The notes under the pieces were generated by a model. That model saw nothing but the letters and a program-made list of their open reading frames with translations, was not told the origin of the DNA and ran no database searches. A program made the translations under genes and the position numbers. From Elusimicrobiota bacterium (GTDB lineage: Bacteria > Elusimicrobiota > Elusimicrobia > FEN-1173 > JAKLIF01): a stretch of 64,000 bases of DNA. Location of the stretch: positions 29,171 to 93,170 of the forward strand of contig JAKLIF010000003.1 of NCBI GenBank assembly GCA_022709755.1. The letters run 5' to 3'. Shown here piece by piece: positions 12,295 through 60,047 of this stretch (its first letter is position 1; every line of letters starts with the position of its first letter).

Positions 12295-12611
12295 GGGGTG
12301 ATTCTATGTTTTTTTGCCCTAAAACGGAAACGTTCCTCATCTCATGAGTGTGAGGACGGTCAAGGCCGCTTGGTCACCCTGAAGCGATGAGCAAGGGATT
12401 TAGGTGGGGATGTGAGTGGGAGAGAGTGGTTAACCTTCTTGGGTATACCGCTGCACTCGACGCCCTGCAAGGAGTAGGAGACGGAACATGGGGGTAAAAT
12501 ATAAAGAGGCAGGTTGTTTCTTGAGTAGGTTTAAAAATTGTTTTTGAGATAGAAAATATATTTTAACAGAAGTAAAAAATACCCAATATTTTGAATGGAG
12601 GAGATAAACTA

Positions 12612-13898: not shown

Positions 13899-14117
13899 TT
13901 GCTTTTTAGTTTATTATGTATGGGCGGGATTGGTTGATGTTTATCTTCTTAATATTTATAAAAAACGATTCCGATCTTGTGTGTAAAAGGATGGGTAACT
14001 AATATAGCGAATGATGCCACAAAAAGAATAATACTTTGATATGCAATCCCCGCTCCTTGTTTATGTTCAACGTCGGCCCTCATTTACTTTCCCAATCCTG
14101 ACTGATAGAATAGCTCC

Positions 14118-27018: not shown

Positions 27019-27019
27019 G

Positions 27020-29425
27020 TCACGGGGCCTCTCCGAAGACGGGTTGTCGCTCGATATGGATCTGGGAACTGTTCCCCGGCCGGGGGTTCCCCGTCCCGCG
27101 CAGAAGGGGGAACGAGTTGGCGTCATACCATTCGAGGTGCTGTTGTTCCAATAAGGGGAGGTTGATCGTGGAGACCGTGTAGGCGGAGGGGGGGAGACTC
27201 CGTTGTTTCTGGCGGAGCTGGAGCGTGAACGGGGCCGTGGAGGGGTCCGTCTCGAAGGACACGGTCCCCGCGTTTTCAGATATCTTGAAATCCAACTGGC
27301 CGCTCCACGCCTGGCTGGTGCCGCCGGCGATGCGGAACCGTTCGAGTTGTCCTCCCGGGATGCGCAAGGTCCCTTCCAGAGGGGTCTCCGGGACGGTGTT
27401 GACGGTGATCACGGTGCGGGTCCGGTCGGGGTTGTGGGCGTCCATGGTCCGACGGAGCATGGACAACGTGGACCGGTCGCGCCGGGCCAGGTTCACCGTT
27501 TCGTCGGGGTCCATCCAAAGGTCGTAGACCTCCTCCTCGTCGAACTGGGTGACGACGGATTTGTCCCCGAAGATGGATTTTTTCGTGAAGCGGAGAGGGA
27601 TCGGTTCGTGGCGGATGTATTTGAGATGCCCTTCGCTGATGAACCCCTTGCAGTGCAGTCCCGTCAGAAGGAGGGGGGCGGGTTCGCTGCCTTCTCCGTA
27701 GGACGGCGCGGAAAAATAGGATTGGGCCCTTCCCCGGAACCCGGGCGGCGGGGCGATGTCGAGGATCGAGAGGATGACCGGCGAGAAGTCCAGGAGTTGG
27801 ACCGGCCCCGGCAGTTTCTGGCCCTGCGGCATCGACGGATGTTTCATGGCCCAGACCACGCGGACGTCTCCCTCCCTCAGGTTGAGCCCGGGATCGGTCA
27901 ACACGCCGAAGGCCGGTTGTCCATCGAGCAAGACCGGTTTCGGTTGGAAATCAATGCCGTGCATCGAGAGGAAGGAGACGAGCCCGTCGTCCCACGTCTT
28001 CAGGGCGTCCATCACCGAGAAAAGCCAGCCGACGTATTCGTCGATGTAAGCCAGCTGGCTGAGGTAGGACCATTGTTCGAGGCCGATCCCTCCGTAGAAG
28101 AGCTTGGGGAGCGCGCGGGCGAAGAAGCGGATGGGGATCAGCGTGTCGGTCCGGGGTTCGCTGAAGAAGACGAAAAGACAGAAGGGCCGGTTGTCGCGGT
28201 TTCGGGCCAACCAATCGGCCGTCTCCTGGGCGATGTGCGCCGGTTCGTAGCCGGGGTGGTCGAACAGCACCGCCTCGTCGAATCCCCAGTCGATCCCTTC
28301 GGGGGAACCGTCGGCAATCTCCGGCAGGGATCCGATGGCCGCCGTCTGATATCCCTTCTCCCGGAGGACCGTCGGCAGGGTCGGGATCTTCTTCATGTAG
28401 AAACGTTCTTTCTCCACGCGGGTCAGCGAATTTCCGAACGGGAGAAAGTCCATCTGGAACGGCCAGCGGGAGGCCAACAAGGAGGGCAACGCCAGCCGGG
28501 GCGTGTTCCCGTTGGAATAGACGATCTGGCTGTCGATCCCTTCGTGGATGAACCGGTCCATGTTGGGCGTGAGGGACTTCTTGAAACCGTGCGCGCCGAG
28601 CGATGACCAGTTGAGCGGGTCCACCACCAGCACGATCAGGTTGTTCCGCGTCGGGGCGTTGGGGTTCGCCGGTCCCCAGAGCCGCGGATTGGCCCAGAAG
28701 GCGTGGGCGGGTTCCGGGGAATCCGCCGGAGAGACCGGGACCGTCTTGAAACGCAGGGTCGTCTTCTTTCCGGCGGCGTTCCCGAACCTGACGGTGCCGT
28801 GGATCCATCGTTCGTCGGGCGGGACCGGGCGGTGGAGGACGCGTCGGACGGCCTTTTTGATGAAGGAACGGGAGGGGGAGGAGTCCGGGACCGATTCCGT
28901 CGAAAAGAGGGTGGCCGTCTTGCCGTCTTCGTCCACCGCTTCGATGAGGAAACGGACCGCGGGACCGGGCGAGAGGACGCCGCAATCGAATTCCAGGAGC
29001 CCGTTCGGCGGGACGTCCACATGGAATTCATACGTGGTGGAGGCCGGCGCGTAGAGGGCATGGCGCCGGACCGTGCGTGCGCTGTCTTCTCTCAGGGAGA
29101 CGTGCACCGCGTGGTCGGACGAGTGCCATCGCCGGTTCGCGTTGACGGCGGGTCGCAGGACCAATTGCAACCGCGAGGATTCGAACCGGTCGGATTGGAT
29201 CCTGGCTTCCGCGACGTGGTCGATGAAAGAATAAACGATCTGCCGAGCGGGGGCCGCGTCTTGGATCCCGGGAAACCGGAACGGGATCCGCTGGTCGTTC
29301 GGCCAGAGATAGGTGAAGTAACAGAAGGAGGCCACCACGACGGCCAGGAGGACGACGATCAGGGTGTATTCGATCGTGCGTTGCCGGGTCACCCGGCGGA
29401 GTTGGAGAGGGTTTTGAGAGGTCAC
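27020..29425 (-). CDS. sulfatase-family (alkaline-phosphatase superfamily) protein with a single N-terminal TM anchor and a large C-terminal extension
   Basis: TM IEYTLIVVLLAVVVASFCYF. Core LIVLVVDPLNWSSLGAHG...TPNMDRF...GNTPRLALPSLLASRWP. 801 aa. Confidence 0.7.
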   Translation of the reverse strand: MTSQNPLQLRRVTRQRTIEYTLIVVLLAVVVASFCYFTYLWPNDQRIPFRFPGIQDAAPARQIVYSFIDHVAEARIQSDRFESSRLQLVLRPAVNANRRWHSSDHAVHVSLREDSARTVRRHALYAPASTTYEFHVDVPPNGLLEFDCGVLSPGPAVRFLIEAVDEDGKTATLFSTESVPDSSPSRSFIKKAVRRVLHRPVPPDERWIHGTVRFGNAAGKKTTLRFKTVPVSPADSPEPAHAFWANPRLWGPANPNAPTRNNLIVLVVDPLNWSSLGAHGFKKSLTPNMDRFIHEGIDSQIVYSNGNTPRLALPSLLASRWPFQMDFLPFGNSLTRVEKERFYMKKIPTLPTVLREKGYQTAAIGSLPEIADGSPEGIDWGFDEAVLFDHPGYEPAHIAQETADWLARNRDNRPFCLFVFFSEPRTDTLIPIRFFARALPKLFYGGIGLEQWSYLSQLAYIDEYVGWLFSVMDALKTWDDGLVSFLSMHGIDFQPKPVLLDGQPAFGVLTDPGLNLREGDVRVVWAMKHPSMPQGQKLPGPVQLLDFSPVILSILDIAPPPGFRGRAQSYFSAPSYGEGSEPAPLLLTGLHCKGFISEGHLKYIRHEPIPLRFTKKSIFGDKSVVTQFDEEEVYDLWMDPDETVNLARRDRSTLSMLRRTMDAHNPDRTRTVITVNTVPETPLEGTLRIPGGQLERFRIAGGTSQAWSGQLDFKISENAGTVSFETDPSTAPFTLQLRQKQRSLPPSAYTVSTINLPLLEQQHLEWYDANSFPLLRGTGNPRPGNSSQIHIERQPVFGEAP

Positions 29426-41939: not shown

Positions 41940-42921
41940 ACGACTGGGCCGGAGAGCCCGGCGCATCCTGGTCACCGGTGGAGCCGGTTTCTTGGGGTCC
42001 CATCTGTGCGACGCTCTCATCAGCCGGGGTCATTCCGTCATCTGTGTGGATAATTTTCTGACGGGGAAACCGGACAACATCGCTCATTTGATGGGCCATC
42101 CCCGTTTCGAGTTCATCCGCCATAACGTCACCCACGATCTGTTCATCCACGGTCCCCTTCACGCCATCATGCATTTCGCCAGCCCGGCCTCTCCCGTCGA
42201 TTACCTGAATTATCCGATCGAAACGCTGAAAGTGGGGGCGTTGGGGACCCATAAGATGCTCGGCCTGGCTCGGGCCAAGGGGGCTGTTTTTTTTCTGGCA
42301 TCCACTTCGGAAGTCTACGGCGATCCGCAGGTCCATCCGCAGCGGGAGGACTATTGGGGACACGTCAATCCGGTGGGCCCCCGCGGCGTCTACGACGAGG
42401 CCAAGCGGTTCGGCGAAGCCCTTTGTATGGCGTATCACAAGGTCCATCGGATCCCGGTGAGATTGGTTCGGATCTTCAACGTCTACGGTCCCCGCATGCA
42501 ATTGCGCGACGGCCGGGCGGTGCCGGCTTTCATCTCGGCGGCGCTCAACCGGAAACCCTTCCCGGTCTTCGGGAACGGACGGCAGACCCGCTCTTTCTGC
42601 TATATCGACGACATGGTGGACGGATTGCTCCGTCTCCTTTTTTCCGACTACAACGGTCCGGTGAACATCGGCAATCCTCAGGAGATCAGCGTCTTGAAGA
42701 TGGCCCAGACCATCAAGCGCCTGACGAAGAGCCGGTGTCCGATCGTCCATAAGGGGTTGCCCGTCGACGACCCCAAGGTCCGTCAGCCGGATATCACTTT
42801 GGCCAAACGATTGTTAGGTTGGAGCCCTCGGGTATCGCTGGAGGACGGTCTGAGCCGGACGATCCGCTGGTTTCGTGAGGAACGATACGAAAAGCGGGAG
42901 AGAACCCATGAAAAAAAATAG
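41932..42921 (+). CDS. UDP-glucuronate decarboxylase (UDP-xylose synthase-like extended SDR)
   Basis: [21 protein letters not shown] and the typical UXS/ArnA C-terminal region. Overlaps the upstream stop by 8 nt. Confidence 0.85.
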
Positions 42922-44899
42922 ATTCATCACTTTGATGATCGCCGTGTCCTGGTCGCTGCTCGTGACGATCCTGTTCCTCCGGGGGTCGTTCCAGGGGCTG
43001 GAGAACAAGACCGTTGATTCCCGTTTCGCCCTCCGAGGACAACGCGCGCCGGACCCGCGGGTCGTGATCATCACGGTGGATGAAAAATCCATCGCCGAGA
43101 TGGGCCGTTGGCCTTGGCCCCGACACATCCACGCCCAGTTGATCGAACTCCTGACGAAGGCCGGCGCCACGTCCATCGCGTTCGATATGCTATCGACGGA
43201 AGTGGACAAGGAACATCCGGATTCAGACCAGCGTTTCGCGCAGGCGGCCCAGCAGAGCGGCCGGGTCACGGTCGGGATGTTGTTCCAGCTCGGTGAAGGC
43301 GGAGCGGCCACAGCGCCGTTGTTTCCCTACGAAGCCTTGGCTCAAAAGGCGTCTCTCATGGGTTTCGTCAATAATTTCCCGGAAGCCGACGGGGTCAGCC
43401 GGAAAGTGCCGCTCTACGCCGTCTACAACGATCGGCTCTACCCCTCCCTGTCGTGCGCGGCGCTGGCTGTTCATGAAGGCAAAACGCCGGAAGACCTCCT
43501 GGAGAGACTGAACCTGCCTCTGGAGGGGATCTGGAACGAGATGACCGTCAACTATGTGGGCGGGTTCCAGTCGTTCCCTTATTTTTCCTTCGTGGATGTG
43601 CTGAACGGGAAGGTCACCCCGGACACGTTCAAGGACAAGATCGTCCTGATCGGCGGAACAGCCACGGCGCTGTTTGATTTCCGGGCGGTCCCCAATGTCC
43701 CCGTTTTTCCGGGGCTGGAGATCCACGCCAACGCCATCGACAACTATCTCAACAAAAACCACCTCCGTCATTCCACCTTGCTCCTCGGCGTGCTCCTCAT
43801 CCTGGTCTTCGGCATCAGCTGCGGGCTCATCATGTTCCGCTTGCCGGCCTGGATCGGGGCGGTCTCCATCGGGGCCTGGATGACGGGCTTTTTCTTCTTC
43901 TGTCAGTGGATCTTCGTCAGGACCAACGTGGTCATCGACTTCGTGGGGCCGACGGTCTCCCTGTTGGGATGCTATGTCTTCGTCCTGTTCTACCGGTTCA
44001 TCACCGAGGAACGAGAGAAGCGGTGGATCAAGGGGACGTTCTCCCAATATCTGTCGCCGAAGGTCATCGAGGTCATCACCTCGGATCCCAGCCGGCTTCG
44101 CCTGGGCGGCGAGGAACGCATCATGACCGTGTTTTTCTCCGATCTGGCCGGGTTCACCTCCATCTCGGAAGCCCTCAAGCCGCCGGAACTCGTGGCCGTG
44201 CTGAACGAATATCTCACGGCCATGAGCGAGATCATCTTGAAATACGACGGGGTGGTGGATAAATACATCGGCGACGCCATCATGGCGTTCTGGAACGCTC
44301 CCCTCGACGAACCGCGACACGCCAGTCTGGCCTGCTTCTCCGCGCTGGAGAACATCCAGCAGTTGAAGATCCTTCAAAAGAAGTTCCAACAGCAGGGGTT
44401 GCCGTTGATCGACTGCCGAATCGGGTTGAACACCGGGAACATGGTCGTCGGAAACATGGGATCCAAAAACCGGTTCGACTACACGGTCATGGGGGATTCC
44501 GTCAACCTGGGGTCCCGCCTCGAAGGGGCCAATAAACCGTTCCATACCCGCATCATGGTGTCGGATTTCACATATCAGCAGGCGAAGAACGACGTCGAGG
44601 TCCGCGAACTGGACCTCCTTCGGGTGAAGGGGAAAGCGGTGCCGATCCGCGTCTATGAGTTGGTGGCCCGAAAAGGGGAACTCACCGATACCCAGCGCAA
44701 GGGGTTCGATCTGTATGCCGAAGGGTTGCAATTTTACCGTGACAGGAAATTCTCGAAGGCCGTCGAAAAATTCAAGAAGGTGTATGAGTCCATCCCCGAC
44801 GACGGCCCCTCCGCCGTCTATATCTCTCGCAGCGAAGGATATATCGCCACGCCGCCTCCTCCGGAATGGGACGGCGTCTACGTGATGACCACGAAGTAA
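42908..44899 (+). CDS. CHASE2 sensor domain / class III adenylate-guanylate cyclase
   Basis: N-terminal TM, periplasmic CHASE2, three TM helices, then a cyclase homology domain with [19 protein letters not shown] and [14 protein letters not shown]. Confidence 0.85.
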
Positions 44900-49351: not shown

Positions 49352-51562
49352 ATGCTGAGTCACATACGGATCAGTTTGTTCATGAAAGTGGCCCTCCTCA
49401 TGGTGGGCTTGGCCACGGTGCCGTTGATGATCGTGGGGACTCAGATCCTCAGTCTGAATAAAGACTCACTCCAATACGAAGTTCTGAGATATCATACCCG
49501 CCTGGCCCAGTCGCTGGCTGAAAAATGGGACGGCCACCTGGCCGTCCTTGAAGAGAAGATCCGGTTCATCATGTCCACGTTCCAATCCAGCGAGATCAGT
49601 TGGCCCGAACGCCAATCGATCCTGCAGTCACTCGTGGATTCCAGCCCGTCGTTCGCCGTGGTATCCATCGTGGGGCAGGACGGTAAGGAATATATGAAGG
49701 TGTATAACCCAATCCTGGAACCGGAGTTGGCCGCATTCCCGTCCTTGGCTTCCCACAGCGAAGAGCCGTTGTTCCAGGATTTCCTCAAATCAAAGCACCG
49801 GGTCATGGAAGTGATCCGGGACAGTGACAATCCCCGCCTGCACCTCTACTACCCCCTTGAAACGCCGACGGGCCGTCACGCGATCTACATCGACACGTCC
49901 CTGCGGGCGTTCTGGGACGAGATCCTGAACACGCGCATCGGACAGACGGGGTTCGCCTATCTGGTCGGGGTGGAAGGGAGCCTCCTGGCCCATCCGGACC
50001 GGAACATGATGGAGGAGCCCCATTCCGTCAGGACCATTCCCCTGGTGGCCGCCGCGTTGGCGGGGAATTCCGGTGCTTCCGAGTTCTCGGATGCGAAGAA
50101 CGTCCAGTGGATCGGCGCCTCGGCCCCGATCCGCCGGATGCAGGGCGCCATCATCACCCAACAACAGCGCAACGAGGCTTACGCCGCCTCGCGGAAGGGC
50201 CAACGCCATGCTCTGTTCTGGATCGTGCTTTCCGCCTTTCTCGCGTCACTCATCGCGGCCCTCTTTGCCCGTCAGATCACCCGCCCCGTGCTGGATTTGA
50301 CCCGCGCCGCCCAGGACGTGAAGGTCGACGTGGGACAGTTCCCTGACGAAGTCGAGGTGCGCACGCACGACGAACTCCAGGACCTGAGCGAGACCTTCAA
50401 CACGATGACCAAAGAGCTGAAATCCTACGCGGCCATGCAGTTGGAACACCTCTTGGCGGAAAAGACCAAGACGGAGGCCATCGTCTTTTCGATTGTCGAC
50501 GGGCTCATCATGACCGATCACCAGGGGCTCATCGAGTTCATCAATCATCGGGCGCGCCAGATCCTGGGGATCACGGCTGAATACCAATCCTTGTTGAAAA
50601 AACCCCTGTGGGATTTCATCCCGCATACGGAAGCGCTCGACGTGCTGTGGGATATCACCCAAAATCCCCAAGACAACACGGCGCGCGAGATCGATCTCTC
50701 GGAGACGGGATATCGGCGGGTTTTCAAGGTGTTCTCCGAAGTGGTCCGCACCCCGACCCGCGGAGAAGACATCGGCGTCGTCATCATCCTCCACGATGTG
50801 ACGCTGGAGAAGGAGATCGAACAGATGAAGGAGGATTTCCTCCATTCCATCACCCATGACCTCCGCAATCCCATGACATCCATCCGGGGATTCCTCAAGT
50901 TCCTCCTGGACGAACTCGGGGGCCCTCTGACGGAACAACAGCGGAAGATGCTCGATACCATGGACCGCGCCAGCCTGCGGCTCCTCGGGATGATCAACGA
51001 CATCCTCGATGTGGCCAAGCTCGAAGCCGGGAAGATGGAAGTCAACCTCGCCGAAACAGATTTGATCGAACTTTCCCAGCGCATCCTTGAACTCCTGCAG
51101 GCCCAGGCCGGGAAGAAGAACATCGAACTGGTCCTGGATGCCAATCCGCAGATGCCCAAATCCATCCTCGATCCGCTCCTCATGGAGCGCCTTCTGACGA
51201 ACTTGGTGGGGAACTCCATCAAGTTTACGCCGGAAAAAGGTCGCATCACGATCGAGTGGCGGGATACGCCGACACAGATCCAGGGGGCCGTCTGCGATAC
51301 GGGAGAAGGGATGCCGCCCGATTTTATGGACAAGATATTCGGGAAGTTCCAGCAAGTGCGCGGCCAGCGCAAGGGAGGCACCGGGCTGGGATTGACCATC
51401 TGTAAATATATCGTCGAGAGTCATAAAGGGACCATCGGCGTGGAATCGACCCTCGGTAAGGGGTCCCGCTTTTATTTCACCATCCCCAAGGGTCTTCAAC
51501 GGGCGGAATCCGGAGAGGTTTATGTCACCAACAGTCCAGCGATATCACAGCAGACCGTCTAG
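49352..51562 (+). CDS. sensor histidine kinase: periplasmic Cache-like domain, HAMP, PAS, HisKA, HATPase_c
   Basis: Two TM helices flank a ~260-aa periplasmic domain. HAMP region. H-box HSITHDLRNP. N/G boxes LVGNSIKF...DTGEGMP...GTGLGLTICK. Confidence 0.85.
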   Translation: MLSHIRISLFMKVALLMVGLATVPLMIVGTQILSLNKDSLQYEVLRYHTRLAQSLAEKWDGHLAVLEEKIRFIMSTFQSSEISWPERQSILQSLVDSSPSFAVVSIVGQDGKEYMKVYNPILEPELAAFPSLASHSEEPLFQDFLKSKHRVMEVIRDSDNPRLHLYYPLETPTGRHAIYIDTSLRAFWDEILNTRIGQTGFAYLVGVEGSLLAHPDRNMMEEPHSVRTIPLVAAALAGNSGASEFSDAKNVQWIGASAPIRRMQGAIITQQQRNEAYAASRKGQRHALFWIVLSAFLASLIAALFARQITRPVLDLTRAAQDVKVDVGQFPDEVEVRTHDELQDLSETFNTMTKELKSYAAMQLEHLLAEKTKTEAIVFSIVDGLIMTDHQGLIEFINHRARQILGITAEYQSLLKKPLWDFIPHTEALDVLWDITQNPQDNTAREIDLSETGYRRVFKVFSEVVRTPTRGEDIGVVIILHDVTLEKEIEQMKEDFLHSITHDLRNPMTSIRGFLKFLLDELGGPLTEQQRKMLDTMDRASLRLLGMINDILDVAKLEAGKMEVNLAETDLIELSQRILELLQAQAGKKNIELVLDANPQMPKSILDPLLMERLLTNLVGNSIKFTPEKGRITIEWRDTPTQIQGAVCDTGEGMPPDFMDKIFGKFQQVRGQRKGGTGLGLTICKYIVESHKGTIGVESTLGKGSRFYFTIPKGLQRAESGEVYVTNSPAISQQTV

Positions 51563-51596
51563 GCGGGCTTTCGGACGGGGCAGTCTCACCGTCCTG

Positions 51597-53111
51597 ATGG
51601 CCTTGTGGATGGGATTGAACGTCGGCCTGGGCGCGACCGACGTCCTTCAAGAGATCGTCGTTCGAGACGGCGACACGCTGTGGAAGATCGCCAACTATTA
51701 TATGAAGGACCCCAAACGCTGGCCCGAACTCCTTCAGTATAATCCCAGGTTGAAGAGCGATCCGACGGTGGCCCTGAGCGGGATGAAACTCCAGGTCCCG
51801 GTCTACCTAATCAAGGAACATCTGCGCGCGGCGGAACTCGTCTATCTCTTGAAAGAGGTCCGCTACAGACGGGACGGGAGCGAACTGTGGAAGCCCGCCG
51901 CCGTCAACATGGAACTGTACAACGAGGACAGCCTCCGCACCATGAAAGAGGCCAAGGCCGACATCCGGTTCCCGACGGGAGAGGTGGTCCACCTGAACGA
52001 GAATTCGCTGGTCCTGGTCCGTCCCGAGAAGGCGAAAGAAGAGCTTTTCCTGATGTCGGGAGACGTGCTGGCCAATCGAGCCAAGGTCATCACCGCCGGC
52101 GGAGCGGAGATCAGCCCCCAGTCTCCCGATGCCCAATACCGGACGCGGATCAAGCCGGATAAGTCGGAACTGGTCCTGGTCTTCAAGGGGAACGTGGACG
52201 TGACCGCGCAAGGGAAGACGGTCCGCATTGCCGAAGGGTTCGGTTCGGAGATCCGGCCGTTGTCACCACCCACCCAGCCCATCCCTCTTCCCCAGATCCC
52301 CGTCGTGGCGGAGAAATACGGCGACCCGGAGAAGAAGGACGTCGCCATCCGTCCGATGTCCACCCGGGACGGACTCATCCTGAAGGTGGATCTGCCTTCT
52401 CTCCAGGTGGAATCTCCGGAGGATCAATCGTCAGCTCCGACGGCAAACAGGGATATCCCGGGGGCTCCCCCGTCGTCCCGGTCCCAGGCGATTACGGCTA
52501 AAAATTTCATCCAAAGATACCGGATTCAGATCAACAAGACCAAAGATTTCTCGAGCCCGCTCGTCGATGGCGTGTATCCTATTTCCCAGAAATTGAACCT
52601 GACCAAACAGGGTCTGGCGGACGGGGAGTATTGGTGGAGGATCGCCTATATCGATTCTTTGGGGCTGGAGGGTCGTTTTTCGACGCCTCAGTCGTTCCAG
52701 GTGGACCTGACACCTCCCGCCTTGATTGTGGCCAGCCCCCTCGAGGGGGAGGAGTTTTCATTTGAGAGCGATGAAATCCGTATTGAGGGAACCTGTGAAC
52801 CCGAGTCCTCCGTGATCGTTGAGGAGAAGGGGATGACTGTCGACGGACAGGGGGTATTCAAGGGCGTAATCTACCTCAAGGAAGGGAAAAACCGGCTGAC
52901 TTTTTTAGCGCGCGACTCTTTCGGGAACCTGACGACCGTCGAGCGGGTCGTCTATCGGTTGGGAGAGGGACAGGAAGGCCGGTATGCGAAACGCGTGGAG
53001 GAGGAAGAAGATTCGGACAAGCCCCGGAAAGAGACGACGTTCGCCACCTTCGGTCTCGGACTGTTGACCATCGGGGTGTTGGTGGGCGTTTTTATTTTGA
53101 TCATCGGTTGA
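51597..53111 (+). CDS. LysM + FecR-like domain protein with C-terminal TM anchor
   Basis: LysM VVRDGDTLWKIANYY...LLQYN. FecR-like beta-rich segment. C-terminal TM TTFATFGLGLLTIGVLVGVFILIIG. Start set to MALWMGL, downstream of the kinase stop. Confidence 0.6.
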   Translation: MALWMGLNVGLGATDVLQEIVVRDGDTLWKIANYYMKDPKRWPELLQYNPRLKSDPTVALSGMKLQVPVYLIKEHLRAAELVYLLKEVRYRRDGSELWKPAAVNMELYNEDSLRTMKEAKADIRFPTGEVVHLNENSLVLVRPEKAKEELFLMSGDVLANRAKVITAGGAEISPQSPDAQYRTRIKPDKSELVLVFKGNVDVTAQGKTVRIAEGFGSEIRPLSPPTQPIPLPQIPVVAEKYGDPEKKDVAIRPMSTRDGLILKVDLPSLQVESPEDQSSAPTANRDIPGAPPSSRSQAITAKNFIQRYRIQINKTKDFSSPLVDGVYPISQKLNLTKQGLADGEYWWRIAYIDSLGLEGRFSTPQSFQVDLTPPALIVASPLEGEEFSFESDEIRIEGTCEPESSVIVEEKGMTVDGQGVFKGVIYLKEGKNRLTFLARDSFGNLTTVERVVYRLGEGQEGRYAKRVEEEEDSDKPRKETTFATFGLGLLTIGVLVGVFILIIG

Positions 53112-53120
53112 GTCGCCCCC

Positions 53121-55427
53121 ATGGATCGACGAGACGGGGTGGCCGCCGTTGTGTTCTCCCTGATCGGCCTCCTGTGGCTGTTCCCTCAGATTTTCCTCGG
53201 TCGGATCCCCTTCGTCGGCGATCTTCTGAATTCTTTCAACCCGTGGTTCACTTCCGCGGCCCAGGCGCTCCAGTCGGGCCGTCTCCCTCTCTGGAATCCT
53301 TATACCGCTTCCGGTGAACCGTTCCTGGCCAATCCCCAGGCGATGATGTTCTATCCCGGAGCCCTGGTCTTCTGGCTGTTTCCTTATGGGTTCGCCTGGC
53401 CCGCCTTTCTAATGATGCATGTGGTCCTGATCGGTGCGGGGACTTTTTTATTGGCCAAGAAATGGGGTTTCTTGACGGGACAAGCCCTTTTTATCGCCTT
53501 GGCGATGGTTTGGAACGGCTTCATGGTCGTCCATTGGGAGTTCCCACCGGCGTTGGCGGCGTCGGCCTATGTCAGCTTGATGATCCTCGTCGGCGGGGCC
53601 TATCGGTCTCGCGTGTCGCCGATGTGGGTTGGTTTTGTGTTGGCCATCACGACGACACTCTTGTGTTTGACCGGTTATCCCCACTTCATCTACTACATAC
53701 TCCTCTTGGCGGTCGTTCACCGGCTCACGGAGAGCGGTCGGCGTTTGTGGCGTGGAGACGAGCCCCGGTTCAAGACCGTCTATCATGTCCTTCTGTGGGG
53801 GGCTTTTGTCGGTTTTGGAATCGTCATGAGTCTTCCTCAATGGGGACCGGCCTTGGAAGCCGTTTCCCAGTCCATCCGCAACAGGATTCCGCTGAACTCC
53901 GCGGCGGATTACAGCCTCAATCCGGCGTTCATCCTTAAATTCATCATCCCCGATATCGTCGACAAAGTGGCTCTCCCGTTCCGTTCCTCTCCTTTCGGAG
54001 CTGAATTCTGGCCGTTGCAGCGCAACTGGTTGACCACGTTCTTCATCGGGACGGGGCCGTTCGTGCTGGCGCTGGCCGCACTGCGACACCGGTCTCGATG
54101 GCATCTGGCGGGAGTGGCCCTGTTCGCCGGGATGTTGGCTTGCGCGATGCCGGTCGTGTTCCCGCTGGTTTGGACCCTGTTCCCGGGGATGAGATACATG
54201 ACTCATTTCGCCAACGCCATGTTGATTGCCGTCTGGGCGGTTGTTTTCCTGGCGGGCTTCGGGCTGAAAGACCTGTCCGGCGACCGGAAGCCGGCGCTCC
54301 TCCTCCTGGCCTTGGTGGCCGTGGTCTCGACGGTCGTGGCGTTGAGCGGGACTTTTCGGGGGATGTCGGCCCGTTGGCTTCTGGGACTCGGGTCTCTGAG
54401 CGAGGCCCAACATATGTGGATGAAGACGGCCGCGTGCCATAGCGTGGTCTGGATGGCGCTCTGGGCCGGATTGTTCTTTTTTCGCTGGAAGGGGAAGACT
54501 TTGTCCCTGTTGGCCTTGTTGTCGGCTGAACTGTGGATGTTCGGCCATGATATCCATCCCTTGACCCGTCATTCCTTCTTCCATGAGCCGGTGACATTGG
54601 CGCGTTTCGTCCAAACGAAAGATGTGCGCTTTGTGATGGATCCGGAACTCATGAAGAAGAGCCGGATCATGACCGGTGATTCCCTGGCGGCGGGTTATCA
54701 GAGTATACGTCAGGTCCTTTATCCCAATGTCCATCTGCCCTTTCGTGTGGAGGCGGCGTGGGGTTATGAGGTCATGCCGAATAAAGCCTACGCCGATTTC
54801 CGACGACAAATATCCGGGAATCTCCTGGAAAACCGGTTGGTGCGGTTCCTGTCCGGAGGCATCGTCCTCTCTGAAACCGATCAGGGTCGTTTCAAGCGGG
54901 CGGATCATTACCATTTCAGCGTCCATGATAACCCCGACGTTCTTCCCAAGGCGACATGGAATTCCAGACGGAAAGTCATTCCGGGGAGCGACGAACGCCT
55001 TCGTTACCTGGTTCGGGAATGGGATCCTTCTTCCGAGACGGTCTTGGAGACGGGGACCGAGGGGGGAGCGCTGACGGGAGTTCAGGGCGGACCGTTGTCG
55101 TTTGGAGAGACGGAAGAGAGTGTTTCTGTCCGGGGGGAACGGTCCACGGCGGGATTTCTTGTGATGAACCGGATCTATTATCCCGGATGGGAAGTGTTCG
55201 TCAATGGAAAGAGGGGAACCCTCCTGCGAGCCAACCATGCTTTTCAATGCGTTGAGACGCCCGCTGGGTATTGGGACGTCGTTTTTAAATATCGGCCCAG
55301 AATTTTTTATTTGGCGGTATGGGGGTTTGTGTCTGTCTCGTTGTTCCTGATCGCATCCAATCTGTTGATGGCGATCCCGAAAAAAAGGGCTTTTTTTGCG
55401 TCAAAAAACGCAAAATACAGGGTTTAA
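53121..55427 (+). CDS. YfhO-family large polytopic membrane protein (glycosyl-modification-associated)
   Basis: 768 aa, ~14 TM helices and a C-terminal extracytoplasmic domain, typical of the YfhO/DUF2723 architecture. Confidence 0.65.
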   Translation: MDRRDGVAAVVFSLIGLLWLFPQIFLGRIPFVGDLLNSFNPWFTSAAQALQSGRLPLWNPYTASGEPFLANPQAMMFYPGALVFWLFPYGFAWPAFLMMHVVLIGAGTFLLAKKWGFLTGQALFIALAMVWNGFMVVHWEFPPALAASAYVSLMILVGGAYRSRVSPMWVGFVLAITTTLLCLTGYPHFIYYILLLAVVHRLTESGRRLWRGDEPRFKTVYHVLLWGAFVGFGIVMSLPQWGPALEAVSQSIRNRIPLNSAADYSLNPAFILKFIIPDIVDKVALPFRSSPFGAEFWPLQRNWLTTFFIGTGPFVLALAALRHRSRWHLAGVALFAGMLACAMPVVFPLVWTLFPGMRYMTHFANAMLIAVWAVVFLAGFGLKDLSGDRKPALLLLALVAVVSTVVALSGTFRGMSARWLLGLGSLSEAQHMWMKTAACHSVVWMALWAGLFFFRWKGKTLSLLALLSAELWMFGHDIHPLTRHSFFHEPVTLARFVQTKDVRFVMDPELMKKSRIMTGDSLAAGYQSIRQVLYPNVHLPFRVEAAWGYEVMPNKAYADFRRQISGNLLENRLVRFLSGGIVLSETDQGRFKRADHYHFSVHDNPDVLPKATWNSRRKVIPGSDERLRYLVREWDPSSETVLETGTEGGALTGVQGGPLSFGETEESVSVRGERSTAGFLVMNRIYYPGWEVFVNGKRGTLLRANHAFQCVETPAGYWDVVFKYRPRIFYLAVWGFVSVSLFLIASNLLMAIPKKRAFFASKNAKYRV

Positions 55428-55467: not shown

Positions 55468-55496
55468 TTGACAAAATGGGGTTCGGACCCTATACT
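55468..55496 (+). promoter_or_regulatory. sigma70-type promoter: TTGACA - 17 nt - TATACT
   Basis: Exact -35 hexamer at 55468-55473 and -10 hexamer at 55491-55496, with 17-nt spacing, 40 nt after the yfhO-like stop. Predicted TSS ~55503. Confidence 0.55.
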
Positions 55497-55504
55497 TGGA
55501 GTGA

Positions 55505-55630
55505 CGATAAGGGCAACCCTCGGTGAAAGCTGGGGGGCGCAAAGCTACGGGGCTAAAGAGAGGTCATTCTATATCCAAAGTGAAAGCTTTGGATACCTTC
55601 CGCGAGGGAGGGCTGGCCGAGCTGCCGAAT
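55505..55630 (+). ncRNA. c-di-GMP-I (GEMM) riboswitch-like aptamer, copy 1 (divergent, extended P3)
   Basis: AAGGGCAACCC - hairpin with GAAA tetraloop (CCUCGGU GAAA GCUGGGG) - GGGCGCAAAGCUACGGGGCUAAAG ... GGCUGGCCGAGCUGCCGAA. This matches the GEMM-I order GGCAAACC / GNRA-capped P2 / GACGCAAAGCC-ACGGG / P3 / ...GCCGA. One A is missing from the GGCAAAC box. Confidence 0.5.
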
Positions 55631-55688
55631 TATGACGAGAGCAGTTGCTCGTGCGTTCGTGCAGCCGTGGGACTCGATCCCATGTTTT

Positions 55689-55724
55689 AGCCGCGTTTGC
55701 TCAGTGCAAATGGCGGCTTTTTTA
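55689..55724 (+). terminator. intrinsic terminator (expression platform of riboswitch 1): AGCCGCGTTTGC-tcagt-GCAAAtgGCGGCT + TTTTTT
   Basis: ~11-bp GC-rich stem with a 5-nt loop, immediately followed by a T6 run. Read directly from the sequence. Confidence 0.6.
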
Positions 55725-55791
55725 TTCAGTCTGAAACATTGATCTTTTGATTCGCTCGACAAATCTCCTTTAACCGGGAGGCCTTTCCAAG

Positions 55792-55886
55792 AGTTCGGAA
55801 AGGGGCAAACCCGTCGCAAGACGGGGACGCAAAGCCACGGGCCCAGGAACCGCTGAATGGTTTTGGGGCAGCCGGGTTGCCGAAGA
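55792..55886 (+). ncRNA. c-di-GMP-I (GEMM) riboswitch aptamer, copy 2
   Basis: GUUCGGAAAGGGGCAAACC CGUC-GCAA-GACG GGGACGCAAAGCCACGGGCCC...GGGGCAGCCGGGUUGCCGAAG. It has the GGCAAACC box, a GNRA-capped P2, the GACGCAAAGCC-ACGGG core and the 3' GCAGCCGGGUUGCCGA element, nearly identical to the V. cholerae Vc2 consensus. P1 is UUCGG/CCGAA. Downstream leader ends in a U8 tract (56027-56035) just before the GGAGAGG SD of the first cluster gene. Confidence 0.7.
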
Positions 55887-56049
55887 ACAGACGTGTTTGG
55901 CCGACGGCGTTGTAACTTATAAGAAAGACGGCGCTGTAGGTACAATCACTTCATTTTCTTCTTTTGTATCAGCCGGTGACCGTGGTCACGAGCGATCAGT
56001 GATAGTCAGTGACATCGGGCGTCGGCATTTTTTTTGAACGGAGAGGAAA

Positions 56050-56463
56050 ATGAACCAAAAACGGCTTCAAACGATGGCAGTCGCGGCGGGGATCCTGGGA
56101 TGGATCCTTTGCGTGACGCCTGTTTGTCAGCCGGGCCACAGCATCGCCATCCAATCCCTCGAAAACCTGACCAATTACCCCAACCCGTTCGATTCCCGTT
56201 CCGCCGTCACCGTGATCGCCTATACGCTGCCTTCTGAAGCCAGCGTCAAGATCGTCATTTTCGATTTGGGCGGCAATGAGATCCGCCGTTGGGACATCTC
56301 CGCCGGGACGGAGGGATCTCGGCAAGGTTCGAACAGATGGACATGGGATGGAACGGATGAATCGGGGAGCAAAGTTGCGGCGGGGGGGTATGTGTGCCGC
56401 GTGATGGTGGAAGAGGGATACGGTTTCTCTTCCGGAGTCCGGAAGATCGGAGTGATCCGGTAA
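56050..56463 (+). CDS. small secreted protein with FlgD-Ig-like / T9SS C-terminal-domain-like beta-sandwich
   Basis: Signal peptide MNQKRLQTMAVAAGILGWILCVTPVCQ. YPNPFDSRSAVTVIAYTLPSEASVKIVIFDLGGNEIRRW...WTWDGTDESGSKVAAGGYVCRVMVE follows the NPF...I.Y.L......I.D..G..V......G....W.G.D..G..V..G.Y pattern of FlgD Ig-like/Por_Secre_tail domains. GGAGAGG SD. Confidence 0.6.
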   Translation: MNQKRLQTMAVAAGILGWILCVTPVCQPGHSIAIQSLENLTNYPNPFDSRSAVTVIAYTLPSEASVKIVIFDLGGNEIRRWDISAGTEGSRQGSNRWTWDGTDESGSKVAAGGYVCRVMVEEGYGFSSGVRKIGVIR

Positions 56464-56475
56464 CGGAGAACGGCC

Positions 56476-58119
56476 ATGAGACAAGGACTGACCTCATCGA
56501 GCTTCTTCGGAAACCAGGCCCGGCGGCGGTTCGCCGGCCGGCTGGTGTCGGTCCTTCTTGCGGCTCTCCAGGTGGTCTCTCTGTTCCCGATGTCGGCGTC
56601 GGCTCAGGCCAAAGGAGGCGCTCCGGGACAATTCCTCTCGTGGGGAACCGGCGCCCGCAGCATGGGGATGGGAAAGGCCTTCTCCGCCATCGCCGACGAC
56701 GCCACTTCCGTTTATTGGAACCCGGCCGCGATGGTTCAGGCCGAACGGAAAGAGTTGTCCGCCATGCACGTGACCCTTTTCAAAGACACCGCCTACGATT
56801 CCATCAGCTATGTCCACCCGACTTCCAGAGCCGGCACGCTCGGCCTTAATTTCACCCGTCTCTTGTCCTCCGGATTCGAGAAGATCGGGATCAGCATCGA
56901 CCCCAAATCGCAGGAGATCGTCAAGTTGGAGAAGCTCGGCACTTTCGACGACCTTCAACAGGCCTACACGCTGGCTTACGGAAAACAGTTCACGGAAAAG
57001 ATGTCCATCGGCGTGTCCGTCAAACAGATCAGCCATCAGATGGATACGTTCAAACAGGGGTTCGTGGCCGTCGATGCGGCGTTCTTCGGGCGTGAATTTT
57101 TCCCCCATCACCGGATCGCGCTGGTGGGGCAGAACATCGTTTCCCAGGTCTCCGGACAGACGGACGATCAACTGCCGTTGACGGTACGCGTCGGGAACGC
57201 CTATTCCTTGCTGAGGGACCGCATCAACCTGGGGCTGGATATCACGCAGAACAGTTTTTCCGGGTTGGGCTACAATTTCGGGGCCGAATATTGGGTCCTG
57301 CGGTGGGCGGCGCTGAGGCTCGGGATCGAGGCGCATAGCGAAGGAATCGCGGAGACGAGCGTCGGGTTGGGGTTGAAACATCGGAACTATAGCCTGGATG
57401 TCGCCATGGCGATCCATGAACTGGGGATGTCCCAGCGGGTCTCGGCGTCCTGGCGTTTCGGCCGCTCGGTCAAGTCCAGCCAGAGAGAAGAAACCCAGAG
57501 CCTCATCGAACAGGGTCACGAGATGTTCCGGCAGGGCAATTATCTGCAGGCCATCCAGAAATTCAGCGCGGCGTTGGACGTGAACCCGTCCAATAAAGAG
57601 GTCCAGGCCATGGTGGCCAAATTGCAGGATATCGTCTCCGATCTTCCGAAGGCGCCGTCCGGCGACGTGGGCCGGTTGGTGGCTTCCGGCGTCAAGGCGT
57701 ATATGGACGGCGATCTGAACGGCGCGTATGACAGCTTCCGGGCCGCCTTCGATAAGGAGCCGGAGAACGGCCAGTTGATGAATCTGACCAACCGTCTGGC
57801 GAAACAGACCAATCGGCCGATGGTGGAACGGCCCAAGGGCGCCAGCGCGGCCGCCCGATGGACGCTGGTGGACCAGAAGCTGCATGACGCCCTGCAGGCC
57901 ATCTACGAAGGCCGCTATGACGTGGCCATCCAGAAATGCGACGAGGTCCTGCGCATCGAGCCCACGAACGTGGTGGCGATCGGCCGGATGGGCGCGGCGT
58001 TCTTCCTCCTGGGAGAACGGGACAAGGCGGTGGCTCTCTGGAAGCGGGCCCTGGAACTGGATCCGACCCATCGCCCGGCCATCGAATACCTGCAGCAACT
58101 GGGTGAATACAAACGATGA
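56476..58119 (+). CDS. FadL/PorV-like outer-membrane beta-barrel fused to C-terminal TPR repeats
   Basis: Signal peptide ending ...SASAQA. Hatch motif GARSMGMGKAFSAIADDATSVYWNPAAM, the same A-x-AMG-x-AF-x-A-x-ADD-x-S-x-x-x-NPA motif as the FadL at 7806-9065. ~300-aa beta-rich barrel, then ~200 aa of TPR (ALDVNPSNKE..., ALELDPTHRPAIEYL). Confidence 0.65.
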   Translation: MRQGLTSSSFFGNQARRRFAGRLVSVLLAALQVVSLFPMSASAQAKGGAPGQFLSWGTGARSMGMGKAFSAIADDATSVYWNPAAMVQAERKELSAMHVTLFKDTAYDSISYVHPTSRAGTLGLNFTRLLSSGFEKIGISIDPKSQEIVKLEKLGTFDDLQQAYTLAYGKQFTEKMSIGVSVKQISHQMDTFKQGFVAVDAAFFGREFFPHHRIALVGQNIVSQVSGQTDDQLPLTVRVGNAYSLLRDRINLGLDITQNSFSGLGYNFGAEYWVLRWAALRLGIEAHSEGIAETSVGLGLKHRNYSLDVAMAIHELGMSQRVSASWRFGRSVKSSQREETQSLIEQGHEMFRQGNYLQAIQKFSAALDVNPSNKEVQAMVAKLQDIVSDLPKAPSGDVGRLVASGVKAYMDGDLNGAYDSFRAAFDKEPENGQLMNLTNRLAKQTNRPMVERPKGASAAARWTLVDQKLHDALQAIYEGRYDVAIQKCDEVLRIEPTNVVAIGRMGAAFFLLGERDKAVALWKRALELDPTHRPAIEYLQQLGEYKR

Positions 58120-60047
58120 TCTCCGCCCCCTATTATAGAGTAGGTAACTACATGGGGCCCCGCCCCCGGTTCTTGGGTCGCGCGGTCTTCGTTGTGGTGG
58201 CGGCGTTGGTCTGTTCCGGGATTCTGACGGAGACGGGTTTCACCGTCGGCGCCGCCGCCCCGGACCCGGTCATCATCGAACAGGAGAACCTCATCCGCCG
58301 CGAAGCGGAGGAAAAGATCCAGCGGGACATCTTGGACCGCATCCTCGGAGAGGGGCGGGCCAGCGTGCTGGTGAACGTCGAGGTCAGTCTCGAGAGCGAA
58401 AAACGGGAGTCAGGCACGGCGGAAGGGAAAGTGGACGACCGCAAAGGATTGGGCGATCAGGACTACATCCTGCCGTGGGTTCCGGCCCAGAAGTCGGTCA
58501 GCAAGAACAATGAGGTCCCCAAGGACGCCAAGGTGGAATCCGCTTCGGGAGAGATAGCGACCTCCGCGATCCGTCAGGTCGTGCGCCGTTTCGACGTGAC
58601 CGTGATCCACGATGAATCCATGGGCAAACCGCAGATGGAGCTGGTGGATGCGGCCATCCGTTCCGCTTATTCGCGTTACGAGAAGGTCATGAGCGTTATC
58701 TATAAGGCGACCCGGTTTGCCAAATATGAGATGAAGGTCAAGATCAGGGAGGGTTTCTGGGATTTTCTGAAACCCCAGTATCTGTTGCCCGGTCTCATCG
58801 CCCTCCTCCTGTTGTTCTTCCTGTTCGGTCCGGTGTGGCAGTTCCTTCGGGCGGTGTTGAAGGCCATGACGGCCCGCCGTGGAGCGGACATGTTCAGTGA
58901 TTCCAACACACGGCTTGAATCGAAGGGGGAGAACGAGGATAAGGACAAGGATAAAGACGGAAAGAATGGGGAAGGGGAAGAGGCCGATGCTCTGGCGGCC
59001 CTTCAGAAGAAGATGCAGGAGGAGAAATACATCCCCTTCCTCTATGTCGACGATAAGAACCTGAAACGGCTGATCTACCTCATCCGGAAAGAGCCGCCGG
59101 AAGTCATCGCCGTCATCGTGTCTTACCTGAAGCCGGAGTTCGTCAAGGAGATATTGAATTCGCTGGTGCCGGAGTTACAGGCCAAAGTGGCCATGCATAT
59201 GGCCGCGGTGAAACAGATGACGCAGGCGGAGATCCGTTCGTTGGATATGGAGATCAAGGAGAAGATCGATTTTCTCGTGGGGGGTCTCCATTCGTTGTTG
59301 AAGGTCCTCGATGAGGTGAATTCCACCAGCCGTGACAACATCTTGGAATATCTCAAGAACGAACGTCCGAGACTCTATGAGAAGGTGCGGCATTATATCC
59401 TGATGTTCGACGACATCATCAACTTTCCGGACCAGGCCATGCAGATCATCGTCCGTGAGTTAAGGACGGAGAATCTGGCCAAGGCCCTTCAGGGGGCCAG
59501 CCCGGACATCACGAACAAGGTCTTCAACAACATGTCGAAAGGGGCCATGGCTCTTCTCAAGGAGGAGATGGAGTTCAGCCGGGCCTTGACGCCGGATCAG
59601 ATCACGGACGAACGTCAGAAGATATTGAACACCGTCAAGAGCCTTGAATTGGCCGGGAAGATATCGATCCGGGAGAAATTGCCGGATGATTTCCTGGAGT
59701 GGGAGGACATGGAGGTCCTGTCCAACACCGGACAATGGCTCGCCGGCCGTTCTTCGTCGGAACCGGCCGCCTCCCCGGCCGCCAACCCCGAATATTTCAC
59801 GGCAGGAATACAACTCTATCAGGCGGGACAGTATTCGGAAGCACTGCCATATCTTCAGTACGCGGATCAGCTGGACCCCCGGTCCGAGGAGACGAAACAG
59901 TATCTGGGGCACTGCTATTACGCGTTGGGTCAGTACGGCGCCGCGTTGGCGACGTATGAGACGTTGTCAGCGATGAAACCAGGGGATGCGGCTTTGAAAC
60001 AGTGGGTGGAACAGTTCCGCGCGAGCATCTCTCTCCCGACGACATAA
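58116..60047 (+). CDS. chimeric FliF(C-terminal ring-building/TM part)-FliG(middle + C-terminal domains) membrane protein with C-terminal TPR
   Basis: Residues ~50-260 align with the FliF RBM3 and C-terminal TM region: NLIRREAEEKIQRDILDRILGEGRASVLVNVEVSLE versus FliF NDVESRIQRRIEAILSPIVGNGNVHAQVTAQLD, then TM LLPGLIALLLLFFLFGPVWQF. Residues ~300-520 are FliG-like. EPPEVIAVIVSYLKPEFVKEILNSLVPELQAKVAMHMAAV matches the FliG-M EHPQ region. ILMFDDIINFPDQAMQIIVREL...GASPDITNKVFNNMSKGAMALLKEEM...RQKILNTVKSLELAGKISI matches the FliG-C MFxF and charged-helix region. C-terminus is TPR-like (AGIQLYQAGQYSEALPYLQYA...). ATGA overlap with the upstream stop. Confidence 0.7.
   Translation: MISAPYYRVGNYMGPRPRFLGRAVFVVVAALVCSGILTETGFTVGAAAPDPVIIEQENLIRREAEEKIQRDILDRILGEGRASVLVNVEVSLESEKRESGTAEGKVDDRKGLGDQDYILPWVPAQKSVSKNNEVPKDAKVESASGEIATSAIRQVVRRFDVTVIHDESMGKPQMELVDAAIRSAYSRYEKVMSVIYKATRFAKYEMKVKIREGFWDFLKPQYLLPGLIALLLLFFLFGPVWQFLRAVLKAMTARRGADMFSDSNTRLESKGENEDKDKDKDGKNGEGEEADALAALQKKMQEEKYIPFLYVDDKNLKRLIYLIRKEPPEVIAVIVSYLKPEFVKEILNSLVPELQAKVAMHMAAVKQMTQAEIRSLDMEIKEKIDFLVGGLHSLLKVLDEVNSTSRDNILEYLKNERPRLYEKVRHYILMFDDIINFPDQAMQIIVRELRTENLAKALQGASPDITNKVFNNMSKGAMALLKEEMEFSRALTPDQITDERQKILNTVKSLELAGKISIREKLPDDFLEWEDMEVLSNTGQWLAGRSSSEPAASPAANPEYFTAGIQLYQAGQYSEALPYLQYADQLDPRSEETKQYLGHCYYALGQYGAALATYETLSAMKPGDAALKQWVEQFRASISLPTT

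Follow-up and report, generated by a model that had tools for sequence, protein, structure and literature searches.

The subject of this analysis is an open reading frame (ORF) at positions 56476-58119 (+) of a 64-kb stretch of Elusimicrobiota bacterium DNA (the window, to which all coordinates refer unless another locus is named), which encodes a protein of 547 aa, as described in the initial annotation. It lies in a tightly packed operon (Table 1), preceded, across a 12-bp gap, by the gene of a 137-aa secreted protein with a FlgD_ig domain, overlapping by 4 bp with the gene of a 643-aa fusion protein of FliF-like and FliG domains (the FliF-FliG fusion) and followed, 5 bp after the latter, by the gene of a 1599-aa coiled-coil protein. 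Coiled-coil genes of 1036 and 543 aa come next in the same genome, after which an unrelated deaminase gene ends the operon. The 620-bp gap 5' of the operon contains, in this order, a near-consensus promoter, a predicted cyclic di-GMP (c-di-GMP) riboswitch aptamer, a terminator-like hairpin and a second predicted aptamer. On its family scores and predicted structure, the 547-aa protein is a variant of the PorV/PorQ family of outer-membrane barrels with a conserved tail of tetratricopeptide repeats (TPR), and the cluster around it may encode a trans-envelope machine for surface adhesins.

Table 1. Features of the operon, its leader region and its continuation in the same genome
Feature	Position	Strand	Basis and remarks
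Sigma-70-like promoter, TTGACA-17-TATACT	55468..55496	+	11/12 consensus positions; consensus match only
Predicted c-di-GMP-I riboswitch, aptamer 1	55502..55629	+	RF01051, 51.7 bits, gathering score 35
Intrinsic terminator-like hairpin, AGCCGCGTTTGC...GCAAATGGCGGCT then T6	55686..55726	+	Core 55694-55712; in the minimum-free-energy (MFE) fold
Predicted c-di-GMP-I-GGC riboswitch, aptamer 2	55795..55885	+	RF03167, 70.1 bits, gathering score 59, E 2e-16
Small secreted protein like FlgD_ig and the C-terminal domains (CTD) of type IX secretion (T9SS), 137 aa	56050..56463	+	Signal peptide and one Ig-like domain
Barrel-TPR protein: signal peptide	56476..56604	+	Residues 1-43, ...SASA/QAKGG; read from sequence
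Barrel-TPR protein: N-terminal plug/hatch	56614..56748	+	Residues 47-91, GGxPGxFLxWGxGARSxGMGxA...DDAxAxYWNPA
Barrel-TPR protein: 14-strand beta-barrel	56749..57459	+	Residues 92-328; AlphaFold2 model, Foldseek, NF033709
Barrel-TPR protein: TPR domain and stop codon	57460..58119	+	Residues 329-547; Pfam TPR families, 11 model helices
FliF(RBM3-like)-FliG(M,C)-TPR fusion, 643 aa	58116..60047	+	Pfam, Foldseek; 4-bp overlap with the barrel-TPR gene
Pro-rich motif LGDQDYILPWVPAQKSV	Product residues ~112-128 of 58116-60047	+	Inside the low-confidence FliF-like loop
Cytoplasmic coiled-coil protein with C-terminal TPR, 1599 aa	60053..64000, continues past the window	+	ORF
Three coiled-coil genes, same genome	L087 11938-16737, 16758-19868, 19873-21504		Downstream of the window

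The barrel protein and its TPR tail

The protein begins with a signal peptide, the cleavage site of which was placed by its AXA motif; a plug of the FadL/PorV type and a barrel of 14 strands follow, and the last part, of about 215 aa, consists of TPR helices. Residues 52-328 match the NCBIfam model of the PorV/PorQ family (NF033709) with 115.7 bits, above the cut-off of 90. The equivalog models for PorV (NF033710, 38.2 bits, cut-off 250), PorQ (NF033711, 60.7 bits, cut-off 220) and PorV2 (NF052325, 70.2 bits, cut-off 325) all remained far below their cut-offs. Among the Pfam families, UPF0164 was recognised (34 bits, cut-off 21.4), and Toluene_X/FadL (PF03349) reached 21.7 bits of the 29.7 required and covered residues 63-114 alone. 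The plug region aligns with the N-terminal parts of both the FadL/Toluene_X and the PorV models. The tail, at residues ~340-545, belongs to the TPR repeat families (TPR_2, 6e-17, 60.7 bits; TPR_19, 2e-13, 51 bits; TPR_1, 1e-12, 47.7 bits) and bears a weak resemblance to TPR_Slam that is below the cut-off (22 bits, cut-off 35.2).

In an AlphaFold2 model built from an alignment of 36 homologues (mean predicted local distance difference test, pLDDT, 85.4), the signal helix spans residues 13-36 and the plug residues 52-88; precisely 14 strands (92-328) come next, and then 11 helices (332-541) that correspond to the TPR. The best match of this model in the PDB, as found by Foldseek, was PorV of the Flavobacterium johnsoniae T9SS translocon (8gl6_F, E 2e-11, TMt 0.62), with FadL and TodX ranking next, and PorV was also recovered by a profile search of PDB sequences (6h3i_F, E 2.3e-11). 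Model, Foldseek and profile search thus agree on the 14-strand FadL-like barrel with N-terminal plug that characterises the PorV/PorQ family. The protein does not end at its last barrel strand, since 219 residues follow strand 14, which closes with 'SASWRF'. In contrast, a canonical FadL/TodX protein encoded in the same window at 7806-9065 (-) (419 aa, Toluene_X 216 bits) stops at its own last strand, '...GVTYRF' being followed directly by the stop codon. Structures of FadL and PorV have an even number of strands and both termini in the periplasm; because the strand count is even here as well and the N-terminus is periplasmic, the TPR tail is predicted to lie in the periplasm. The initial annotation had proposed a FadL/PorV-like outer-membrane barrel with a C-terminal TPR extension of about 200 aa, predicted to be periplasmic, and had named two outcomes as refuting, a TPR region placed outside the cell and an N-terminal domain that does not model as a 14-strand barrel. 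Neither outcome was obtained; the model, the Foldseek ranking, the Pfam families and the strand count agree with all of these points.

The protein is not peculiar to this genome. An identical sequence is present in NCBI under the name 'PorV/PorQ family protein [Elusimicrobiota bacterium]', and about 67 full-length Elusimicrobiota homologues, with identity down to 39%, all keep both the barrel and the TPR. Thus, the gene is neither a chance ORF nor a gene-fusion artefact. Searches of GTDB species genomes yielded 24 further Elusimicrobiota loci matched over both parts, most of them aligned over residues ~22-542 and a few shortened by contig ends. In the family alignment, the column-majority frequency was highest in the plug (0.83), followed by the C-terminal half of the TPR (0.76) and the barrel strands (0.62). 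The TPR tail is under functional constraint, since its C-terminal half is more conserved than the barrel.

Products and regulation of the operon

The 137-aa protein encoded upstream of the barrel contains a FlgD_ig domain (PF13860, 42.3 bits, cut-off 27). Its best NCBIfam matches were PorU (E 3e-10) and PorZ (E 2.6e-6), both in their retained CTDs, and the FlgD models (E 6e-7) matched more weakly than PorU. Models of type A CTDs stayed below their cut-offs (TIGR04183, 19.6 vs 23; PF18962, 13.9 vs 27), which, together with the PorU and PorZ matches, suggests that the domain is a relative of the type A CTD family and lies outside it. In relatives, the gene directly 5' of the barrel-TPR gene often encodes a giant protein ending in a FlgD_ig domain. 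Annotated examples located beside the barrel gene are 10,738 and 7,967 aa long, and in 10 Elusimicrobia loci upstream ORFs of at least 2,900 aa, which run off the flank, end in the same domain. A study of giant genes has found proteins of at least 10,000 aa to be frequent in Elusimicrobiota. The possibility that the 137-aa gene is a remnant of such a giant gene was rejected, since the small proteins form a family of their own (98 homologues, 99-200 aa) and a small and a giant gene coexist in locus L005. PorV-like barrels lacking the TPR occur elsewhere (Poribacteria, Calditrichia, KSB1 and other metagenome-assembled genomes), with proteins of 600-3,100 aa ending in FlgD_ig encoded directly upstream.

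The downstream gene encodes a protein with a first transmembrane (TM) helix at ~22-44, a periplasmic domain at 51-199, a second TM helix at ~220-245, FliG_M at 318-385, FliG_C at 412-518 and a C-terminal TPR at 554-639. Both FliG domains were identified by Pfam (FliG_C 91.9 bits, FliG_M 48.5 bits), the sequence matched Thermotoga maritima FliG-MC with an E-value of 4.5e-37, and Foldseek paired the model with FliG (1lkv, E 8e-12; FliG_C of 8ucs_H, TMt 0.94). The periplasmic domain was modelled as an alpha-beta-beta-alpha-beta fold with a long low-confidence insert, and it was matched to FliF rings (7bk0_B, E 5.9e-4; 8ftf_A, RBM3, E 5.6e-3). Pfam YscJ_FliF_C was detected in 13 of the 36 homologues of the fusion and not in the window protein. 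RBM1, RBM2 and FliG_N are missing, leaving a single RBM-like domain between two TM helices, and the score with the flagellar FliG equivalog TIGR00207 (126.8 bits) is below the cut-off of 226.7. In the alignment of the fusion family, the positions equivalent to Escherichia coli D288/D289 are occupied by E/E and, like the Gly-Gly linker, are invariant or nearly so; the K264 equivalent is R or K in 32/36 homologues and Q in the window protein. Another conserved element of the family is a Pro-rich motif in the periplasmic loop, L-G-x-x-x-[YF]-[IL]-L-P-[GW]-[VI]-P-x-P-K, which is present in the window protein as LGDQDYILPWVPAQKSV and may act as an element similar to a beta-collar or as a peptide bound by the barrel protein's TPR.

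Synteny was analysed in 27 barrel-TPR loci, which were searched with the cluster proteins by tblastn. The gene of the FliF-FliG fusion is located directly 3' of the barrel-TPR gene in 25 of them, and the barrel-TPR gene is directly 5' of the fusion gene in all three loci reached in the opposite direction, from distant FliG-like homologues. Genes of FlbD, MotA and MotB, which accompany the cluster in at least 16 species, were found within 10 kb downstream in 16 of the 27 loci, as well as in locus P0199, which was reached from the FliG-like side. When compared with E. coli MotA, the cluster MotA has a basic residue (K/R) at R90 and keeps P173 and P222; MotB keeps D32 and carries an OmpA-like peptidoglycan-binding domain. 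The window belongs to a sub-type, also represented by L005, L007, L088 and L089, in which longer coiled-coil genes are found and MotAB does not adjoin the cluster. Export apparatus, rod, hook and filament genes were absent from every locus, and FliM/N from the cluster.

The Elusimicrobiota operons encode one to three long coiled-coil proteins. These have neither a signal peptide nor a TM segment, and their placement in the cytoplasm is expected. The C-terminal TPR of the 1599-aa protein is homologous to that of the fusion (31% identity, E 1e-10). A docking module common to the three TPR tails of the operon was rejected for the barrel protein, the TPR of which matched the other two with E-values of 0.006-0.1. 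The second and third coiled-coil proteins end in tails rich in aromatic and basic residues, GLWGWLNKP and GLWFRFVGWWKKP, which look membrane-binding.

The leader of the operon carries two predicted aptamers in tandem. The first, assigned to the c-di-GMP-I class, overlaps with a match to the GGC-variant model (48 bits), and the hairpin that follows it, the extended stem of which was read from the sequence, is likely its expression platform. After the second aptamer, the stretch 55951-55966 pairs in the MFE fold with the ribosome-binding site and start codon at 56040-56055; in relatives, the aptamers abut the start codon. Of 23 clusters scanned, 21 have a riboswitch of the c-di-GMP-I class directly 5' of either the small CTD gene or the barrel-TPR gene. 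Where a giant gene is present, the riboswitch sits between it and the barrel-TPR gene, and in L009 a comparable TTGACA-17-TATAAT site precedes the riboswitch. With a riboswitch directly upstream, the barrel-TPR gene probably heads, or nearly heads, a transcription unit controlled by c-di-GMP. Among the window ORFs scanned, no GGDEF or EAL genes were seen. Other signalling genes of the window encode a CHASE2-adenylate/guanylate cyclase (42875-44899, +) and a REC-PAS-LuxR regulator (976-2256, -).

A possible trans-envelope machine and its alternatives

The initial annotation had also noted a FliF/FliG-like inner-membrane neighbour and a resemblance of the first gene product to FlgD-Ig and T9SS CTDs. 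Both observations are supported, the former by the two-TM fusion, the 4-bp gene overlap and the synteny in either direction (25/27 and 3/3 loci), and the latter by the best matches to PorU and PorZ CTDs and by the occurrence of the domain at the end of giant upstream proteins. Thus, the interpretation given there stands in part, for the barrel, the periplasmic TPR, the FliF/FliG neighbour and the CTD-like first gene, and fails for docking of the TPR tail to the coiled-coil protein, which is topologically implausible because the coiled-coil proteins should be cytoplasmic and the tail periplasmic. That annotation did not include the FlbD-MotA-MotB genes of relatives, the genes of giant cargo proteins or the tandem riboswitches for c-di-GMP.

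Taken together, domain content and gene order may indicate a trans-envelope machine for surface adhesins that is driven by the proton motive force and regulated by c-di-GMP, with the barrel-TPR protein as its CTD-binding part in the outer membrane, a reading to which we assign an even chance. In such a machine, the barrel would act like PorV/PorQ or SprF, binding the Ig-like CTD and holding the small or giant adhesin-like protein at the outer membrane, while the periplasmic TPR tail would tie the barrel to the fusion protein's ring domain in the periplasm, possibly by way of the Pro-rich loop of the latter. On the cytoplasmic side, FliG_C, with the acidic pair of its torque helix kept, would be engaged by MotAB stator units, and the coiled-coil proteins might serve as a cytoplasmic scaffold. 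The assembled machine, switched by c-di-GMP, would move, deploy or secrete surface adhesins in gliding or adhesion.

Each part of the cluster has a counterpart in known systems. PorV and PorQ of the Bacteroidota T9SS share with the protein studied here the 14-strand FadL-like barrel, the N-terminal plug and the genetic pairing with proteins carrying an Ig-like CTD; unlike them, it has a periplasmic TPR of about 215 aa, occurs in Elusimicrobiota and is partnered by FliF/FliG and MotAB-type proteins. The T9SS is described in reviews as restricted to Bacteroidota/Fibrobacteres-Chlorobi-Bacteroidetes (FCB) (PMC5445135, PMC12398890). The adjacency of a gene for a very large adhesin or a CTD protein and that of its cognate outer-membrane barrel is also known for SprB-SprF and other pairs of type-B-CTD and PorP-like proteins (PMC9143113), as well as for PorZ-PorQ and PorU-PorV. 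In all these pairs, surface anchoring of the retained CTD is attributed to the barrel, whereas here an anchoring role is read from adjacency only; the cluster further differs from them in the barrel, which is of PorV/PorQ and not of PorP/SprF type and has a TPR tail, and in the CTD type, which is FlgD_ig.

As for the flagellar core (FlbD/SwrD, FliF, FliG, MotAB), the cluster has in common with it a putative RBM3-like FliF domain between two TM helices, the FliG_M and FliG_C folds, the Gly-Gly linker and the acidic pair, and, in the stator, the residues R90 (as K/R), P173 and P222 of MotA and D32 of MotB, but FliF and FliG are joined in one chain of 600-650 aa with an extra TPR. The GldLM/PorLM gliding machinery of Flavobacterium (PMC8986121) embodies the same concept, a proton-driven inner-membrane 5:2 motor coupled to outer-membrane parts that handle giant CTD adhesins. 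The cluster differs from it in having MotAB and a FliG-type rotor and in lacking a GldK/N ring and SprA, and the coupling is hypothetical here. Finally, Slam, BcsC and PgaA combine a periplasmic TPR that handles cargo or partners with an outer-membrane barrel (of 14 strands in Slam), although in these proteins the TPR is N-terminal, so that the domain order is reversed, and the barrel families are unrelated.

In full-text literature searches, neither the cluster nor a PorV-TPR protein was found to be described, and the conserved cluster, as judged from comparative genomics and structure prediction, appears to match no described system. We tentatively suggest, while considering it somewhat doubtful, that it is an undescribed chimera of a minimal flagellar rotor and stator (FliF-FliG, MotAB, FlbD) with a T9SS-like CTD receptor (PorV-TPR), which would move or deploy giant adhesins under c-di-GMP control. 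The novelty lies in the conserved cluster, the barrel gene alone being a PorV/PorQ-family variant. A study of magnetotactic Elusimicrobiota (bioRxiv 10.1101/2022.07.08.499144) reported that flagellar structural genes are missing from most free-living members, which nevertheless possess motAB, flbD and fliG, the role of which was called unclear or 'enigmatic'. If the proposed machine exists, these orphan fliG, motAB and flbD genes of non-flagellated Elusimicrobiota would be explained, and both the 'enigmatic' genes and the giant genes would gain a concrete role; a FliF/FliG/MotAB torque module would then be able to function in the absence of rod, filament and type III export apparatus. Such an export-less module might be a remnant or represent a separate recruitment of the rotor-stator core; either case bears on the origin of the flagellar motor and on what else a rotor-stator pair may drive. 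The pairing of a PorV/PorQ barrel with a FlgD_ig/CTD protein recurs across several candidate phyla, suggesting a general CTD-receptor module beyond Bacteroidota, and the conserved c-di-GMP riboswitch provides a handle for experiments.

Several observations weigh against the proposed adhesin machine. Its physical contacts and its function are all read from domain identity and synteny, and about five TPR repeats plus one RBM domain may be too short to span the periplasm. In the fusion family, the R281 equivalent is lost, with G or N in its place, and the EHPQR motif is degenerate (EHPQ being ExPx); in the cluster MotA, the E98 position is mostly Q. For these reasons a rotor function of the fusion is not assured. 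The rotor-stator pairings described are R90-D288/D289 and E98-R281 (PMC12505986), so the loss of E98 parallels that of its FliG partner R281, and the R90-D288/D289 pair is retained. Two of the 27 loci, L022 (626-7443) and L029 (5151-6758), have no recognisable FliG-like gene downstream, and in L022 the barrel gene is directly followed by that of a 1635-aa protein. MotA, MotB and FlbD were not found by tblastn with L006 queries in the window or in the flanks of the same genome, an extension of 10 kb past the fusion gene showed the operon closing at the deaminase gene with no MotAB, and no giant CTD protein is adjacent to the window operon. A SprA/Sov-like translocon, PorU and GldKLMN/PorKLMN were absent from the 64-kb window and from the 10-kb flanks of related loci, and none of the cluster genes accounts for the passage of a 10,000-aa protein across the outer membrane. 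Cultured Elusimicrobia, moreover, are described as non-motile (bioRxiv 10.1101/2022.07.08.499144).

Among the alternatives, the one deserving most attention, even if we consider it unlikely, is that the barrel-TPR protein is a stand-alone T9SS-like anchor or shuttle, which only binds, sorts or anchors FlgD_ig/CTD proteins (as in PorQ-PorZ, PorV-PorU and SprF-SprB) and uses its TPR as a periplasmic cargo chaperone in the manner of Slam, the FliF/FliG, coiled-coil and MotAB genes being merely co-regulated. The pairs of a CTD protein and a PorV-like barrel that occur in other phyla without TPR or FliG genes are consistent with this, as are the lack of MotAB in the window operon and the weak resemblance to TPR_Slam. 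However, the TPR-fused form of the barrel occurs together with a FliG-like gene in nearly every locus approached from either side (25/27 and 3/3), and the barrel and fusion genes overlap by 4 bp within one riboswitch-controlled transcription unit. A role in envelope tethering or cell architecture, in which FliF/FliG-MotAB would energise an outer-membrane-linked TPR barrel like Tol-Pal or TonB and serve outer-membrane attachment, shape or division together with a coiled-coil cytoskeleton, the adhesin link being secondary, seems to us a good deal less probable than that. The giant coiled-coil proteins of the operon with the presumably membrane-binding tails found in the window genome and the OmpA-like peptidoglycan-binding domain of MotB fit such a role, and in the Tol and Ton systems, processes at the outer membrane are energised by 5:2 motors (PMC9389320, PMC12965293). 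Riboswitch control and the giant CTD neighbours, on the other hand, point to surface behaviour rather than housekeeping. Moreover, we know of no FliG_C-type rotor in Tol or Ton systems.

The cluster might also be a reduced flagellar basal body, with an MS-ring/FliG/stator core and the FlgD-like Ig protein as a cap or rod piece; the barrel-TPR protein would replace the L/P rings as a bushing or collar in the outer membrane. FliF-, FliG-, FlbD-, MotA- and MotB-like proteins as well as FlgD_ig are all flagellum-associated families, and the 137-aa protein is matched by the NCBIfam FlgD models. Nevertheless, this protein is closer to the CTDs of PorU and PorZ than to FlgD, the barrel is PorV-like and not FlgH-like, export apparatus, rod, hook and filament genes are missing from all loci, and the conservation of the cluster under purifying selection across the phylum argues against decay, so that we regard a reduced flagellum as improbable, slightly more so than a tethering role. 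By far the least probable is a FadL-type transporter of hydrophobic substrates, the TPR of which would hand the substrate on in the periplasm next to unrelated neighbours. The FadL/TodX-like fold with its plug and the weak Toluene_X match are in line with transport, but the Toluene_X score is below its cut-off while that of PorV/PorQ is above, the genome already encodes a separate canonical FadL, and the gene is held in a tight, conserved operon with non-transport genes; on these grounds it was rejected as a primary reading.

Other genes of the window

Thirty further window ORFs were scanned with Pfam and turned out to be housekeeping, signalling and cell-wall genes only, with no T9SS core or other secretion genes among them. 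The region directly 5' of the promoter (49352-55427) contains a gene of a dCache/HAMP/PAS histidine kinase, as well as genes of a secreted LysM-FecR-Glucodextran_B protein with a TM segment at its C-terminus and of a YfhO-like polytopic membrane protein; a YfhO-like match is also present upstream in the related locus L036. An island of low GC content (44% vs ~60% for the window) at 12000-14000 includes an ORF (12591-13898, +) encoding an nSTAND1/AAA_16 NTPase, which may be a horizontally acquired gene of a defence type. Two adjoining genes (24691-27126, -, and 27020-29425, -) encode proteins of the sulfatase/phosphodiesterase family of 811 and 801 aa, which are apparently paralogous. As listed, these two ORFs overlap by about 100 bp, and one of the start codons is probably located farther downstream.

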